A DNA stretch of 64,000 nt from Candidatus Nomurabacteria bacterium RIFCSPLOWO2_01_FULL_41_18. GTDB lineage: Bacteria > Patescibacteriota > Minisyncoccia > Phycocordibacterales > UBA9973. Under the pieces are notes generated by a model. It searched no databases and was not told the origin of the DNA. It worked only from the letters and a program-made list of their open reading frames with translations. The stretch is taken from contig MFUZ01000006.1 in assembly GCA_001785865.1 (NCBI GenBank), positions 242,315 to 306,314 of the forward strand. The letters run 5' to 3'. The translations under genes were made by a program, and so were the position numbers. Position 1 is the stretch's first letter, and the number at the start of each line of letters is the position of its first letter. Shown piece by piece: positions 4,222 to 57,281 of this stretch.

Positions 4222-4253
4222 CAGAAAAAGAGCACAGCAGTGTGCTCTTTTTC
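4222..4253. terminator. bidirectional intrinsic terminator hairpin (agagcaca-gcag-tgtgctct flanked by A-run and T-run), nested in larger inverted repeat ggcacaaagcac/gtgctttgtgcc
   Basis: Perfect 8-bp stem with A5 upstream and T5 downstream, between hsp20 3' end and tRNA-Phe 3' end. Confidence 0.55.
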
Positions 4254-4267
4254 ATGTAAGTGCTTTG

Positions 4268-8961: not shown

Positions 8962-10104
8962 ATGGAAAAATTGATTAGCGGCCGAAACTACATAATGGAG
9001 AGAAAATACAAATGGATCATCAAGCCGATTTTGTTCAAATTTGATCCCGAAAACGTGCATGATAATATGGGCGTCGTCGGTCGTTGGCTCGGCAAACACT
9101 TCCTGACCCGTAAATTAGCGAGTTTATTTTGGAATTATTCAAATCCCGCACTGGAACAGAACATTCTCGGTATAAACTTCAAGAACCCGACAGGACTTTC
9201 GGCTGGTTTCGATAAGAATGCGGAATTGACCGAAATCATCTCTTCCATCAGTTTTGGCTTTATGGAAGTGGGCTCTATTACTGGTGAGGCCTGCGTAGGT
9301 AACCCCAAACCCCGGCTTTGGCGCTTGAAGAAATCGAGATCGCTCGCCGTAAATTACGGACTCATGAACGACGGCGCTGAAGCGATAGCCGAAAGATTGG
9401 GCAAGAAGCTCGAGGTGAAAAAATTCGATATCCCCGTCGGCATCAGTATCGCCAAAACAAATTGCAAAGACACAGTAGATACTGAAAAAGCCATCTTCGA
9501 TTATTTCAAGGCTTATCGAGCATTCATCGACATAGGCGACTATTTCACAATAAATATCAGCTGTCCGAACGCCTTTGGCGGACAGCCCTTCACCGACAGC
9601 ACCAAGCTCTACTTGCTGCTTTCGAAAATCATGTCCGTCCCGAAGACAAAACCTATTTTTATAAAATTATCCCCCGACTTAAAACAAAAAGAAATCAATG
9701 AAATACTAGATATTGCCGCAAAATGGAATGTGGACGGATTTATTTGCACAAATTTGACTAAAAATCGTAATAAAAAACAGAATAAAAACATTATAGATGA
9801 AAGCGTGCCGGAGTTAGGCGGACTGTCTGGGAAAGCAGTTGAAGATCTGTCGCTCGAACTGATCAGATATATTTATAAAAAAACAGGTGGAAAAGCAAGT
9901 AAATTTGTAATTATTGGCTGTGGTGGAGTCTTTAGCGCCGAAGATGCATACAAAAAAATAAAAGCCGGCGCTTCCCTCATCCAACTCATAACGGGAATGA
10001 TTTTCGAAGGCCCGCAACTAATTAGTGAAATAAATTTAGGATTAGTAAAACTCCTAAAAGCTGATGGTTATAAAAATATTTCTGAAGCAATTGGAAAAGA
10101 ATAG
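8962..10104 (+). CDS. pyrD: dihydroorotate dehydrogenase (quinone-type, class 2)
   Basis: N-terminal membrane-associated extension + NPTGLSAGFDKN and C-terminal GCGGVFSAEDAYKKIKAGASLIQL motifs. Confidence 0.75.
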   Translation: MEKLISGRNYIMERKYKWIIKPILFKFDPENVHDNMGVVGRWLGKHFLTRKLASLFWNYSNPALEQNILGINFKNPTGLSAGFDKNAELTEIISSISFGFMEVGSITGEACVGNPKPRLWRLKKSRSLAVNYGLMNDGAEAIAERLGKKLEVKKFDIPVGISIAKTNCKDTVDTEKAIFDYFKAYRAFIDIGDYFTINISCPNAFGGQPFTDSTKLYLLLSKIMSVPKTKPIFIKLSPDLKQKEINEILDIAAKWNVDGFICTNLTKNRNKKQNKNIIDESVPELGGLSGKAVEDLSLELIRYIYKKTGGKASKFVIIGCGGVFSAEDAYKKIKAGASLIQLITGMIFEGPQLISEINLGLVKLLKADGYKNISEAIGKE

Positions 10105-10106
10105 AA

Positions 10107-10138
10107 TTACGTAATGTATTACGTAATACATTACGTAA
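10107..10138. repeat. 32-bp perfect palindrome TTACGTAATGTATTACGTAATACATTACGTAA (copy 1) between convergent stops; probable bidirectional terminator
   Basis: Perfect self-complementarity; contains TACGTAA three times at 12-nt spacing; second near-identical copy at 56849-56882. Confidence 0.7.
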
Positions 10139-10146
10139 CTAAAATC

Positions 10147-11418
10147 TTATTTCTTCTTCAACAAAATCATCAAATCAGAAACGTTGGCCCCTGTTGCGCC
10201 GGTCATGATAATGTCGCCGGACTTTTGAAACACCGGGTAAGAATCGAAACGTTCTAGGTGATCATCGATATCTATACCTTGATTTTTTATTTTTTCAATA
10301 GTTTTTTTATCCGCTATGGCTCCAGCTGCATCGCTGTTGTCCATGCCGTCGGAAGCGAGAGAGACAAAGACCGAATCTTCGCCGATCATTCCTTTTTTGA
10401 TCACTCGGAGCGCCATATGGAGGTTTCTTCCGCCCTTTCCCCCTTTCCTTGCCACTTTTATTTCAGGCTCCCCAGCAGCCAAGACGGTAGTATCTGGGGC
10501 TTCCGCTTTAAAAATTTTCCCCACGGCAGAATCTATCTCATCATACATATCTGTGGATAAAATATTTGCTTTAAGGCCAAGTTCTTCCGACTTTTCGGCC
10601 ATCGCGCTTATGGCGGTCTTGTTTGAAACCAGGACAAAATTGCGTACTTTTTCAAAATATTTATCTTCTTTCGGAGTTTCTATCAGGTCGAATTTTCCCA
10701 AATTATATTTACGAATGATTTCTGCAGCATCCGCTACGGTACTCTCATCCTTGTAGGTGGGGCCTGAAGCGACATCAGCAAAATGATCCCCGGGTATATC
10801 GGAAAAAATAAGTCCGACGACATTGGCCGGATAAGCGACTTTGGCCAATCCCCCGCCTTTCAATATGGAAAGATGCTTCCGGACAGTATTTATTTCCTCG
10901 ATAGTGCCTCCACATTTCAAAAATTCATCATAGAGAGCCATATTTTGCTCGCACTCCTCTTTGGAATAGCAGAGCAAGGCAGAGCCACCGCCCGAGACAA
11001 GTACGATGATGAGATCATCTTCGCTTCCATTTTTCAATATTTCATATATTTTTTCACCGGCCTCTACATTCATCATACTCGGCCTCGGGTGGCTCCCGGC
11101 AAATACGTCGATATAGTCGAGGCTGATCTTGGCAAGTCCAACCACGGCGCCAGTTTCTATCTTCGGACCTAAAATTTTCTCCAACGCGAGAGCGGCACGG
11201 GCAGAAGCCTTGCCAAAACCGACAACTTTGATTTTTTTAAATTTCGACAGATCGAAACTCTCCCCCATTATGGTAAGTAGATCGCCCTCGGGCTTTACAA
11301 ATCGAGAAATTACTTCTTCGGTATCGATCGCCGATAGTCCCGCCTCAATGATAGCAAGAGCCAATTTACGATTTTCCGTTGTGGCGAGCTCGCCCTGATT
11401 TTTGATCCATCTTTTCAT
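10147..11418 (-). CDS. glycerate kinase, MOFRL family (glycerate 2-kinase-like)
   Basis: 423 aa; VVGFGKASARAA, VSGGGSALL, GGKGGRN motifs typical of MOFRL/DUF4147 glycerate kinases. Confidence 0.6.
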   Translation of the reverse strand: MKRWIKNQGELATTENRKLALAIIEAGLSAIDTEEVISRFVKPEGDLLTIMGESFDLSKFKKIKVVGFGKASARAALALEKILGPKIETGAVVGLAKISLDYIDVFAGSHPRPSMMNVEAGEKIYEILKNGSEDDLIIVLVSGGGSALLCYSKEECEQNMALYDEFLKCGGTIEEINTVRKHLSILKGGGLAKVAYPANVVGLIFSDIPGDHFADVASGPTYKDESTVADAAEIIRKYNLGKFDLIETPKEDKYFEKVRNFVLVSNKTAISAMAEKSEELGLKANILSTDMYDEIDSAVGKIFKAEAPDTTVLAAGEPEIKVARKGGKGGRNLHMALRVIKKGMIGEDSVFVSLASDGMDNSDAAGAIADKKTIEKIKNQGIDIDDHLERFDSYPVFQKSGDIIMTGATGANVSDLMILLKKK

Positions 11419-32774: not shown

Positions 32775-33260
32775 TTATTTCTTACCTTGAATATTATTCT
32801 TAATCCATTCATTTTTCTTTTTTCTATACTCATCCTCTGGTAAACCGTCTAAGGAATTTTTAAAATCTTCATATCTTTGACTTAAACCTGCATCTGCTCG
32901 CAATTTTTCTAAAGTCCTGCGATGAATTCCTATCATCTTATGACCTACAGGAAGTATTTGTAAATCAACTCTTATTCCATTTCTTTTTGTATTTAAGTGG
33001 CTAATTTCTTTGACTACAGGACCTTGTATGTAACTTTTTTCAACAAGCAACTTACTGTCAGCATTAACGTCATTGCTCACAACCATCACGTCAATTTCTG
33101 ATTTTCCAGAAATCGGCACAGCCATAGAACCAATCAATTCTGAAGAAGAATCAGGAAGTATTTTTGATAATTCAATAATAATTTCTTTCTGTAATTCAGA
33201 AATTTCTAGAGATGGTTTTATTATCTTTATTTTTTCGTTCATGCTTGTATTATAACACAC
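32775..33260 (-). CDS. GrpB family protein (nucleotidyltransferase-fold, UPF0157)
   Basis: 161 aa; LIGSMAVPISGKSEIDVMV and C-terminal pattern typical of GrpB. Confidence 0.55.
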   Translation of the reverse strand: MCYNTSMNEKIKIIKPSLEISELQKEIIIELSKILPDSSSELIGSMAVPISGKSEIDVMVVSNDVNADSKLLVEKSYIQGPVVKEISHLNTKRNGIRVDLQILPVGHKMIGIHRRTLEKLRADAGLSQRYEDFKNSLDGLPEDEYRKKKNEWIKNNIQGKK

Positions 33261-33271
33261 TCTTTATTAGT

Positions 33272-33312
33272 GAACCACCGATGTTGATAAATTCTGCATA
33301 TGCAGAATTTAT
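33272..33312. repeat. 40-bp perfect palindrome GATGTTGATAAATTCTGCATATGCAGAATTTATCAACATC just downstream of PaaX-like gene
   Basis: Perfect IR; half-site recurs upstream of same gene at 33941-33963. Confidence 0.7.
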
Positions 33313-33322
33313 CAACATCTAG

Positions 33323-33925
33323 TTAAGGCAAGTGAAAATGTTTCCCTAATTTTTCATCTCTCAAAATGTTTTCTACGACCAAAATCTCAACACACTTCTC
33401 TACTCCAAAGAAATCAGCAATAAATATTATTTCGTCTTCGCATGGATAAGGATAAATCCAAGCGGATTTTTGAAATTGAAAAAAATTTAGTTCTTTCAAA
33501 TGAAAACGTAATGCTTCCCGTCCTTTTGTAAATCTCATAGGAATATCAAACATAACTAATCTCCATTTACCGTCCCATTTCTTAGGCTTGTTAATTTTCA
33601 TCAACTCAATATCAAAAACTTTTAATTTAGTATCACCTTTTTTTGTAATTTTTACTATTGTTTTCCCGTTCTTGTCAGAGACATATTCTATAAGATTTTG
33701 TTTACGAAGATGATTTATTGAATTTCTAATTTGTTCCTTACTGAGATGTTTAGAACTTTTAAATTGTCTGAAAACTTGTACTGCATTGCCCATAGCAGCC
33801 GCAATCAAAACAAGAGCTGGAATTGACGCAACAGCGATCACACACAAAACCACTTGAGCAATCTGGGCTTTTCTTGTCTTAGAATCCAAAAATTCTCTAA
33901 TTCTTGAGGAATATTTATTTTTCAT
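33323..33925 (-). CDS. PaaX-family-like transcriptional regulator (TM anchor + winged-helix + PaaX_C/Cas2-like alpha/beta domain), tentative
   Basis: wHTH-like LRKQNLIEYVSDKNGKTIVKITKKGDTKL; C-terminal WRLVMFDIP...ALRFHLKELNFFQFQKSAWIY; ATG at 33925 preferred over upstream TTG at 33961. Confidence 0.45.
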   Translation of the reverse strand: MKNKYSSRIREFLDSKTRKAQIAQVVLCVIAVASIPALVLIAAAMGNAVQVFRQFKSSKHLSKEQIRNSINHLRKQNLIEYVSDKNGKTIVKITKKGDTKLKVFDIELMKINKPKKWDGKWRLVMFDIPMRFTKGREALRFHLKELNFFQFQKSAWIYPYPCEDEIIFIADFFGVEKCVEILVVENILRDEKLGKHFHLP

Positions 33926-33940
33926 ATTGTTTATAATTAT

Positions 33941-33963
33941 AGCATATGCAGAATTTATCAACA
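33941..33963. promoter_or_regulatory. upstream copy of 22-bp motif GCATATGCAGAATTTATCAACA (candidate operator) in promoter region of PaaX-like gene
   Basis: Direct match to half of the downstream 40-bp palindrome. Confidence 0.4.
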
Positions 33964-36037: not shown

Positions 36038-36134
36038 AGCACAGAAGCCGTTATGTATCTAAAATTATTACGGAAAAAAAATAAAACCACTCCGCTTTTA
36101 GCGGAGTGGTTTTTACAACACATCATGTAAAACT

Positions 36135-36419
36135 TTATCCCATGTGTCCACTACCTAAAATCAAACTAGATTCTCGCTCAAACAAAGCATTCTCCTGTTC
36201 AATACATGCTGGACATTTGGTAAAGTGTACAGAAATATTTTCTTCGTTGTATTCGTTTAGATAATTAGGTTTTTTAAAATTCCAAGATTTTTTATAGTAA
36301 AAAGCATAACAATGCTCACACATAGACATAGTAAGAGTTTTGAATTTCTTATTTCTGGGAAACTCTTTTCTTTTACCATTAACCCAATCTTTTGCTAATG
36401 TTTTAAATCTTTTTAACAT
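36135..36419 (-). CDS. hypothetical Cys-rich zinc-ribbon protein (94 aa)
   Basis: Two CxxC pairs (CEHC ... CPAC). Confidence 0.4.
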   Translation of the reverse strand: MLKRFKTLAKDWVNGKRKEFPRNKKFKTLTMSMCEHCYAFYYKKSWNFKKPNYLNEYNEENISVHFTKCPACIEQENALFERESSLILGSGHMG

Positions 36420-36624
36420 ATATTTTTATTTTTTACCCCGCCACAGCGGGGCAAGTTAATTTTTAATAATTGTTCGACATTAAGTTAATAATATTACGTA
36501 AATAATTTAATCTAATTTTAATATTATATTAATACGAAATCGATAAGTCAATATAAAAAATAGCCCTTTTGGGCATAAGTTGTTAATAAACTGTTTATAA
36601 TTTTAATGTTAACTTAACTTTATA

Positions 36625-55999: not shown

Positions 56000-56857
56000 A
56001 TGGATAAATTAAGCTTTGTATTTTGGGGAACACCCGATGTAGCCTCTGAGACACTTGAAACCTTAAAGCAAGCTAGATTTTTACCGTCTTTGATTGTTAC
56101 ATCTCCAGATGCAAAAAAAGGGAGAGGCATGCATATGGAAGCATCCCCCGTAGCCATTTTTGCAGAACAAAATAAAATACCTTGTCTTAAACCCGAAAAA
56201 CTTGACGAAGAATTTTGTAATAAACTAAAGCCTAGCTGTCTAAAGCCTAATTGCCTATTTATTGTGGTTGCTTACGGCAAAATAATACCTGAAAATATTA
56301 TAAATATGCCGAAATTGGGCTCTATCAATATACATTATTCACTTCTCCCAAAATATCGTGGAGCTTCTCCTGTAGAATCTGCGATCTTAAACGGAGATAC
56401 GGAAACAGGAGTGACTATACAAAAAATGGTATATAAATTGGATGCAGGAAACATATTAGCGCAAGAAAAGGTGCAAATATCGCCTGATGAAACAGCTCCA
56501 GAATTAAGAAAAAAATTAATTAAAATAGGTGGAGAACTTTTGGTAAAAACTTTAGGAACCCCCTCCTTCCTCCCCCTTATCAAGGGGGAGGTGCCGAAAG
56601 TGGTAGGGATCGAGCAAGATGAATCTCAAGCCACATTTTGCAAAAAAATTAAAAAAGAAGACGGACTGATAGATTTAAATGCCGATGCAGTTACAAACTA
56701 TAATAAATGGAGAGCCTATGTCTTTTGGCCAAGAACTTTCTTTTTTGTAAATGGAAAGAGAATAATAGTTACTGACGCAAAGCTTATAGATGGAAAGTTT
56801 GTGATTAAAAAAATCATTCCAGAAAACGGAAAAGAAATGAATTACAAAGTTACGTAA
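56000..56857 (+). CDS. fmt: methionyl-tRNA formyltransferase
   Basis: N-terminal formyltransferase (NIHYSLLPKYRGASPVESAILNGD) and C-terminal domain; small GC hairpin insert at 56569-56591. Confidence 0.85.
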   Translation: MDKLSFVFWGTPDVASETLETLKQARFLPSLIVTSPDAKKGRGMHMEASPVAIFAEQNKIPCLKPEKLDEEFCNKLKPSCLKPNCLFIVVAYGKIIPENIINMPKLGSINIHYSLLPKYRGASPVESAILNGDTETGVTIQKMVYKLDAGNILAQEKVQISPDETAPELRKKLIKIGGELLVKTLGTPSFLPLIKGEVPKVVGIEQDESQATFCKKIKKEDGLIDLNADAVTNYNKWRAYVFWPRTFFFVNGKRIIVTDAKLIDGKFVIKKIIPENGKEMNYKVT

Positions 56858-56882
56858 TGTATTACGTAATACATTACGTAAC
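56849..56882. repeat. 34-bp perfect palindrome GTTACGTAATGTATTACGTAATACATTACGTAAC (copy 2) overlapping fmt and hpf stop codons
   Basis: Identical 32-bp core to copy at 10107-10138; same convergent-gene context. Confidence 0.7.
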
Positions 56883-57281
56883 TTAATACTTCGAAGTAAA
56901 AGGATTTCGTTTTGAGAGACCCTTCATCATCTTTTTGACACTGCGGGCTCCGCGATACAAGAGCGTCTGACTGCGATCTTTGTTTTTATTTATTTCGTAG
57001 TAGAGAGTGTCTTTAATGGCATCTATCGCCTGATATAAATCTTCCTTATCAGAGCTAGAATAAAATTCTTTGCCGTCTATCTTGATCAGACAATCTGCAT
57101 GGAAAACCTCGCCTGATTTATGATGATTTGTGGACTTGCCTACTTCGAAATTTACCATCACCTTTCCTCCCCCTTCTTTTATCCTGGTAAGAAGCTTTTC
57201 CAAGTTGGTAACCCTCTTCAAAACATAGTCTTTTATAGCTTCAGTTAATTCAATATTTTTACCCTGTAAATTGATTTGCAT
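56883..57281 (-). CDS. hpf: ribosome hibernation promoting factor (HPF/RaiA/YfiA family)
   Basis: MQINLQGKNIELTEAIKDYV... typical RaiA fold signature. Confidence 0.8.
   Translation of the reverse strand: MQINLQGKNIELTEAIKDYVLKRVTNLEKLLTRIKEGGGKVMVNFEVGKSTNHHKSGEVFHADCLIKIDGKEFYSSSDKEDLYQAIDAIKDTLYYEINKNKDRSQTLLYRGARSVKKMMKGLSKRNPFTSKY

Follow-up and report, generated by a model that had tools for sequence, protein, structure and literature searches.

The window analyzed here, the whole stretch of 64 kb, carries two exact copies of the 32-mer TTACGTAATGTATTACGTAATACATTACGTAA, each containing three boxes of the 8-mer TTACGTAA. With a probability of about 0.55, we read each copy as a three-box DNA-binding array whose probable ligand is an orphan protein of ~58 residues with a predicted AbrB/MazE/SpoVT fold. 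The motif family, its 12-bp phasing, its link to an AbrB-fold gene and the conservation of the second copy were observed directly. A first-pass annotation of the window had named, as an alternative, an array of TACGTAA cores spaced 12 nt apart that is bound by a protein, and the constant boxes, the 12-bp phase and the AbrB-fold gene link all speak for it.

The 32-mer is its own reverse complement, i.e. a perfect palindrome, and as the first-pass annotation had stated it is present twice, exactly, at both sites (Table 1). Chance copies were absent from 100 dinucleotide-preserving shuffles, even with three mismatches allowed. Seven exact TTACGTAA boxes were counted in the window against 0.84 expected, six within the two arrays and one as a lone intergenic box, perhaps a weak site of this family standing on its own. 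The window has 40% G+C and is 94% coding, and none of the seven falls within coding sequence other than on a stop codon. No credible further array was found in the window with up to seven mismatches tolerated over three boxes, and a search of Rfam 15 at gathering thresholds returned four tRNAs for the window and no curated RNA family at either array.

Both arrays occupy gaps of 25–42 nt between convergent genes, in agreement with the earlier annotation, and neither lies in a promoter. Copy 1 fills the 42-nt gap between the pyrD stop codon (10102-10104) and the glycerate-kinase stop codon (10147-10149, minus strand). Copy 2 extends the 32-mer to a 34-bp palindrome (GTTACG...CGTAAC). The earlier statement that this copy overlaps the stop codons of both fmt and hpf was correct for fmt, whose stop (56855-56857) is the TAA of the first box, but not for hpf, since the array ends 1 nt before that stop (56883-56885) without overlapping it. 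The identities of the flanking genes are based on Pfam matches on identical or orthologous loci. The window's PyrD is 100% identical to a Candidatus Nomurabacteria protein (OGI68621.1), which places the window in Patescibacteria (CPR).

Table 1. Coordinates of the two arrays, their flanking genes and the lone box in the 64-kb window.
Feature	Coordinates	Strand	Details
Array copy 1	10107..10138	none	boxes 10107-10114, 10119-10126, 10131-10138; spacers TGTA, TACA; 32-bp perfect palindrome
Array copy 2	56849..56882	none	32-mer 56850-56881; boxes 56850-56857, 56862-56869, 56874-56881
pyrD (dihydroorotate dehydrogenase)	8962..10104	+	TAG stop 2 nt before copy 1
Glycerate kinase	10147..11418	-	stop 8 nt after copy 1; ortholog carries DUF4147 and MOFRL
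fmt (methionyl-tRNA formyltransferase)	56000..56857	+	last gene of the hisS-def-fmt run; stop inside box 1 of copy 2
hpf (ribosome hibernation factor, Ribosomal_S30AE)	56883..57281	-	convergent with fmt
Lone exact TTACGTAA box	36494..36501	none	intergenic (gap 36420-36624); upstream of minus-strand gene 36135-36419 by ~75 nt

Separately from the arrays, the window contains a 40-bp perfect palindrome at 33280-33319, in which ATGCAGAATTTATCAACA appears twice in inverted orientation; the repeat recurs as a third copy at 33946-33963, a distance of 630 nt, with 0.15 expected by chance. Read on the minus strand, the repeat is TTGATAAATTCTGCATATGC, followed at the third copy by TATAAT. Because this corresponds to a -35-like hexamer and an extended -10, the repeat looks like a repeated promoter, or a promoter plus operator, upstream of the minus-strand genes 32775-33260 and 33323-33961.

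The first-pass annotation had favored a bidirectional terminator at the two array sites. In a reading of this kind, a stem-loop of 14–17 bp on either strand would stop the polymerase or protect mRNA 3' ends, as REP hairpins do in E. coli. The hairpin itself is real. Its folding z-scores were -5.8 to -7.3 relative to shuffles on both strands, the bare 32-mer and the 34-mer fold at -14.2 and -16.8 kcal/mol, respectively, and the arrays exactly fill two convergent 3' gaps. On the minus strand, i.e. in the glycerate-kinase transcript, copy 1 passes a terminator-like scan with 16 pairs and the tail CTATTCTTTT. However, this is the only one of four directions with a T-tract, copy 2 passes the scan in neither direction, and the AT-rich stem contains only three G-C pairs. 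Canonical terminators with A-tract, GC-stem and T-tract are present elsewhere in the window, at 36083-36113 (-22.3 kcal/mol) and 4229-4256 (-20.8 kcal/mol); both look bidirectional, and the genome thus uses standard terminators. No hairpin was found at the other short convergent gaps of the window (40590/40607, 57779/57791 and 63154/63158).

A spacer-agnostic scan with the pattern TTACGTAA-N4-TTACGTAA-N4-TTACGTAA, using one genome per species, yielded 99 loci. Most belong to Patescibacteria (Saccharibacteria, Nomura-, Morani-, Paceibacterota, Doudna-, Davies- and Peribacteria), and the others are labelled Bacteroidales/Rikenellaceae, Bdellovibrionales or Chloroflexota, along with a few more. 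Box and spacing are constant and the spacers vary between sites: 225 of the 227 neighbouring box pairs within 60 nt have a box-to-box distance of exactly 12 nt, and arrays with three, four, five and six boxes numbered 83, 11, 5 and 1, respectively. According to the flank statistics (C at position -1 in ~1%, A at position -2 in 68%), each box widens to a 12-bp palindromic unit, wA-TTACGTAA-Tw. Only eight boxes were found outside arrays in 703 kb, corresponding to a background of ~1 exact box per 88 kb. Judged from sequence, a constant palindromic box with a fixed period, free spacers and a variable number of units is the signature of an oligomerising DNA-binding protein, and not that of a hairpin acting through structure only.

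Across the family, no preference for convergent junctions was seen. Based on crude ORF-based gene calls, array-bearing gaps comprised 10 convergent, 31 tandem and 5 divergent cases against a background of 64, 339 and 56 (p=0.36); divergent gaps were not depleted, and the arrays were not confined to promoters either. Hence, the convergent-gene context, noted for both copies in the first-pass annotation, is not a family property, and the distribution singles out neither an operator nor a barrier role.

The terminator reading gains some ground from the family, in that T-rich tails follow 17% of array sides compared with 6% of control positions, and perfect palindromes are over-represented among three-box arrays, with covarying spacers. 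Yet 52 of the 83 three-box arrays are not palindromic, divergent gaps carry their share of arrays, and T-tails are not commoner on palindromic (10/41) than on non-palindromic arrays (21/70), so that the coupling of T-tract to palindromy that was looked for was not found. A structural role would also leave unexplained the constancy of the 8-mer over very deep lineages, the strict 12-nt phase and the positioning of arrays after the -10 and ahead of the start codon in a single gene family. We therefore regard an intrinsic terminator or mRNA-end hairpin as an unlikely primary function of the two copies.

Several loci of the scan have settings of their own. In five genomes labelled Bdellovibrionales (L007, L014, L055, L069 and L084), the array lies between a gene of ~155–158 aa, whose stop codon overlaps or abuts the last box, and ddl, whose start is ~8 nt off where visible; this intra-operon position fits neither an operator nor a terminator. 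In a Saccharibacteria locus (L023, 1780-1811), the array directly follows the stop of def (peptide deformylase) and faces a convergent gene, echoing the window array that closes the def-fmt run. Arrays of L076 and L100 lie near tRNA-Arg(GCG). The viral collection yielded a single, unrelated-looking array of five TTACGTAA boxes with CCGG spacers near the end of an IMG/VR contig (L127, 174-229).

Among ORFs starting within 60 nt of an array, the sole recurring gene family encodes a protein of ~58 aa with the consensus ..N[VI]RK[IL]TK[VL]GGKSLAVTLP.E....LGWKEKQKVVVK....G.LIKDWK. The protein matches Pfam PF04014 (MazE/AbrB/SpoVT) above the gathering score, and its AlphaFold model has a beta-beta-alpha-beta-beta layout with a mean pLDDT of 73. 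A PDB sequence search gave no match and the fold search alone placed the protein; the best PDB fold matches were all MazE, AbrB-N, SpoVT, VapB and archaeal AbrB-like DNA-binding domains, with weak E-values for what is a very small domain. The family comprises at least 3,232 clusters at 90% identity, and its named members, all from Patescibacteria, are annotated only as hypothetical or 'antitoxin'. Where literature searches on TTACGTAA arrays or on AbrB/SpoVT proteins in CPR gave any result, the papers were on eukaryotic bZIP, and none described the 58-aa protein.

By tblastn, the gene was found at 17 distinct array-selected loci (one sampled twice), starting 0–31 nt downstream of the array. 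The exact 32-mer of the window is itself the array upstream of this gene in L051/L115 (Nomurabacteria GW2011_GWF2_40-type) and in L100, where it is preceded by TGGTAGAAT-AG or TGTTACAAT-AG. In the reverse test, eight homologues picked by protein alone provided nine genes, in seven of which an exact TTACGTAA falls within ~35 nt ahead of the start codon and is flanked by degenerate boxes in 12-bp phase; a strict extended -10 (TGCTAAAAT or TGCTAGAAT) is located just upstream in five of these seven. One of the nine genes lies directly behind a NUDIX gene that has an array in its promoter (TGCTAAAAT-AG-TTACGTAA-TTAA-ATACATAT-TTAA-ATACATAT), and one has only variant boxes (ATACGTAT/ATACATAC). Given the low background frequency of exact boxes, the association between array and 58-aa gene cannot, on these counts, be chance. 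It was seen in 9 of 12 Patescibacteria-type genomes with at least two array loci. Arrays at the AbrB-like gene are always in the promoter region, at a position relative to the -10 that varies by lineage; of 24 promoters, 10 have a strict extended -10 whose end lies 0–16 nt upstream of the first near-perfect box.

No conserved toxin or partner gene was found downstream of the 58-aa gene, where the genes differ at every locus (hydrolase, HTH+Fic, DUF2061, PLD-SNF2 helicase, RadC, enolase, glycosyltransferase, DUF488-like, RecG). The lack of a conserved downstream partner led us to reject a toxin-antitoxin operator of the MazEF, VapBC or PrlF-YhaV type, and with such widely varying neighbours the protein is predicted to be an orphan regulator and not an antitoxin. 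The gene often heads variable, defence-like or mobile neighbourhoods (L128, L130, L136, L137, L138, L139). Genes encoding Fic, DpnI, HsdM, PLD-SNF2 helicase, PIF1 helicase, RadC and Bro-N occur in the neighbourhoods of these homologues, as does a LexA-S24-methyltransferase fusion, and in L139 two paralogues of the 58-aa gene each have their own array. The protein might regulate defence islands.

Sequence conservation differed between the two window copies. Over 1.2 kb, the window and the fmt/hpf junction of a relative (L109) share 72% identity, and at this junction the palindrome of copy 2 is identical at 34 of 34 positions, with flanks 73% identical in a 211-nt alignment (P about 3e-5). Copy 1 is absent from the orthologous pyrD/glycerate-kinase junction of L142 and reduced to one degenerate box in L143; PyrD identity to these relatives is 74–76%, and the degenerate box, AATTAGGTAAT, stands right after the TAG stop. 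Boxes were kept and spacers changed upstream of ddl in the five Bdellovibrionales-labelled genomes, at the tRNA-Ser(GCT) promoter (L013 and L079) and at the AbrB-like promoter of two Peribacteria.

The absence of copy 1 in two relatives would also be expected of a selfish or neutral palindrome resembling REP or MITE elements, spread by copy-paste, 12-bp slippage or quasi-palindrome template switching and functionless at both sites. Consistent with such mobility, identical TGTA/TACA spacers recur at unrelated sites and genomes (both window copies, L051, L067, L100, L101 and L126), box number ranges from three to six, the arrays are spread over the intergenic classes as if at random, and direct-repeat arrays are ~6-fold over-represented (22/83 vs 3.6 expected), which indicates slippage. 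An orthologous Chloroflexi array is moreover inverted between colinear flanks, with spacers GCGA/GCGA in L042 (7762-7793) and TCGC/TCGC in L070 (7212-7243), suggesting flipping between the palindromic outer boxes. In unit number, direct-repeat excess, absence of copy 1 in relatives and inversion, the arrays are thus dynamic. Against a mobile origin, however, copy 2 is perfectly conserved amid its diverged flanks, and the core motif is common to lineages too deep for recent spread. Perfect three-box arrays are also few, with two in the 64 kb of the window and two recovered from the 813-kb contig of a relative (L033 and L067).

Hallmarks of known mobile elements were likewise missing from these loci. 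Neither a target-site duplication nor, apart from the boxes, any terminal-repeat structure accompanies the arrays; in particular, the flanks GAATAGAA/CTAAAATC of copy 1 and TTACAAAG/CTTAATAC of copy 2 contain no direct duplication, and a MITE was rejected. A Y1/RAYT transposase was not found: tblastn with an IS200 TnpA query (an approximate sequence, hence of uncertain sensitivity) and with a Y1_Tnp fragment from L142 gave nothing credible in the window or the array loci, and a weak match in L051 was discarded as noise. The fragment derives from a Y1_Tnp gene of IS200/RAYT type near pyk-eno-pyrD of a relative (L142, 1-211), a locus with no array; the gene has no counterpart in the window. With neither a Y1 transposase in the window or the array loci nor a target-site duplication, and with few copies in the window and on the 813-kb contig, the likeness to REP sequences drawn in the first-pass annotation is not supported, and we consider a mobile, functionless repeat improbable. 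Sites of the dif/Xer type, DNA-uptake sequences and replication-terminator sites were rejected on copy number, symmetry and the 4-nt spacers. For annotation, it follows that intergenic palindromes should not all be labelled terminator or REP.

Another alternative is that the array serves a different protein, e.g. a LacI- or DeoR-type regulator of a CG-centred palindrome, which may apply to Chloroflexi, Coriobacteriia and Paenibacillus. The window encodes no AbrB-like protein, the 58-aa gene having been searched for throughout its 64 kb, and AbrB-like neighbours are absent from Bacteroidales and Rikenellaceae genomes with four to five arrays as well as from arrays in Chloroflexi and a few other groups. 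LacI-family genes adjoin the arrays of L068, L085 and L086, and a DeoR-like gene lies near those of L042 and L070. Because the arrays of Chloroflexi, Coriobacteriaceae and Paenibacillus stand beside LacI or DeoR genes, they are probably bound by a different regulator. The motif-defined set is therefore heterogeneous; the Bacteroidales and Chloroflexi arrays probably serve other proteins, and claims on the ligand are limited to Patescibacteria. In Patescibacteria, however, it is the AbrB-fold gene that recurs beside the arrays, notably in Nomurabacteria that carry the identical 32-mer, and neither window copy has a LacI or DeoR gene nearby. For these two copies we hold a ligand of another family to be very unlikely.

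The palindromy of whole arrays calls for an explanation of its own. Perfect palindromes are ~7-fold over-represented (31 of 83 three-box arrays vs 4.3 ± 1.9 expected). Among 14 distinct sites counted in the Nomurabacteria-type lineage, 12 have complementary T[G/C]TA and TA[C/G]A spacers. In two species, an array is located between an extended -10 (TGCTAGAGT) and tRNA-Ser(GCT) (L013, 1999-2030; L079, 7025-7056), and its spacers differ in a compensatory way, TCTA/TAGA in one and TTAG/CTAA in the other, leaving both arrays palindromic. Protein binding alone does not predict perfect palindromy and compensatory spacers. Either a hairpin, in RNA or DNA, is selected in addition, or quasi-palindrome template switching continues to perfect a sequence of which 24 of 32 positions are self-complementary to begin with.

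Under the preferred reading of a three-dimer binding array, one swapped-hairpin dimer would bind each palindromic 12-bp unit wA-TTACGTAA-Tw, by analogy with solved AbrB-, MazE- and VapB-DNA complexes, and three adjacent dimers would cooperatively coat the whole 32-mer. Actual binding, its stoichiometry and its consequence at convergent gene ends are what we infer from the comparisons above. In relatives, the array lies in the 58-aa gene's own promoter, often just downstream of an extended -10 (TGnTAnnnT) and near the start codon, a layout that would make it an autorepressor operator whose occupancy represses the gene's own transcription. As the window arrays have the same sequence as this operator, both (10107 and 56850) would be occupied whenever the protein is present. 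Against an operator reading, neither window array is placed where an operator would have anything to control. Because each array takes up the entire space between its two convergent genes, the most likely effect would be that the bound protein forms a symmetric barrier and curbs read-through from either side, possibly reinforced by a hairpin in the transcript.

A more far-reaching version, to which we give little credence, is a Patescibacteria-wide genome punctuation in which the 58-aa protein on TTACGTAA arrays would act as a symmetric roadblock or insulator, replace intrinsic terminators, regulate itself and gate a few promoters. If so, the arrays would serve genomes whose convergent genes are only 25–40 bp apart, and the gated promoters would include those of tRNA-Ser, tRNA-Arg and translation genes. 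Should the gene-end arrays prove to be roadblocks, they would suggest how ultra-compact genomes separate convergent transcription units. Patescibacteria (CPR) are for the most part uncultured and encode few recognisable regulators, and how they control transcription seems to be little understood. The present analysis pairs an orphan AbrB-fold protein that is very common with a sharply defined cis-element (TTACGTAA repeated every 12 bp), giving a regulator-operator hypothesis that is directly testable with a 58-residue protein and a 32-bp oligonucleotide.

Compared with known systems, the arrays share with bidirectional Rho-independent terminators a dyad-symmetric sequence in a convergent gap that can fold on both transcripts, but differ in the AT-rich stem, in a T-tract in one of four directions, in a constant motif within the stem and in a family that also occupies promoters and divergent gaps. 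REP/REPIN sequences and MITEs are likewise short palindromic intergenic repeats in several copies, often abutting stop codons. REP/REPIN copies number tens to hundreds per genome, whereas the arrays are few in the sequence surveyed, showed no RAYT or transposase in the window and the array loci and no target duplication, have a core conserved over phylum-level distances, and show a 12-bp periodicity with varying unit number. Closer in layout are MetJ met-boxes, omega heptads, ParG sites and MraZ arrays, in which short boxes lie head to tail at a fixed period (8 bp for MetJ, 7 bp for omega and about 10 bp for MraZ). At such ribbon-helix-helix and MraZ operators one dimer binds per box, coverage is cooperative and box number varies by site. 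The present arrays differ from them in the fold of the presumed protein, in the 12-bp period, in that each box is itself palindromic, and in that whole arrays often are palindromes. The presumed ligand has the swapped-hairpin fold, dimeric by analogy, of AbrB, Abh and SpoVT and of AbrB-type antitoxins (MazE, VapB, PrlF), and as in AbrB/MazE-type operators, family members, though not the window copies, place repeated or palindromic sub-sites in the promoter of the ligand's own gene. Unlike these proteins, it is a bare domain of ~58 aa without a C-terminal oligomerisation or toxin-binding region, and unlike the antitoxins its gene has no conserved toxin or partner downstream. AbrB's own sites are loosely defined, whereas the presumed operator has a sharply delimited 8-bp palindrome that recurs strictly every 12 bp, and perfect arrays also occur outside promoters, including both copies in the window. 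On the sequence comparisons made here, an autoregulated AbrB-fold repressor with a tandem-box operator and extra sites at gene ends is the best-supported description of array and ligand.
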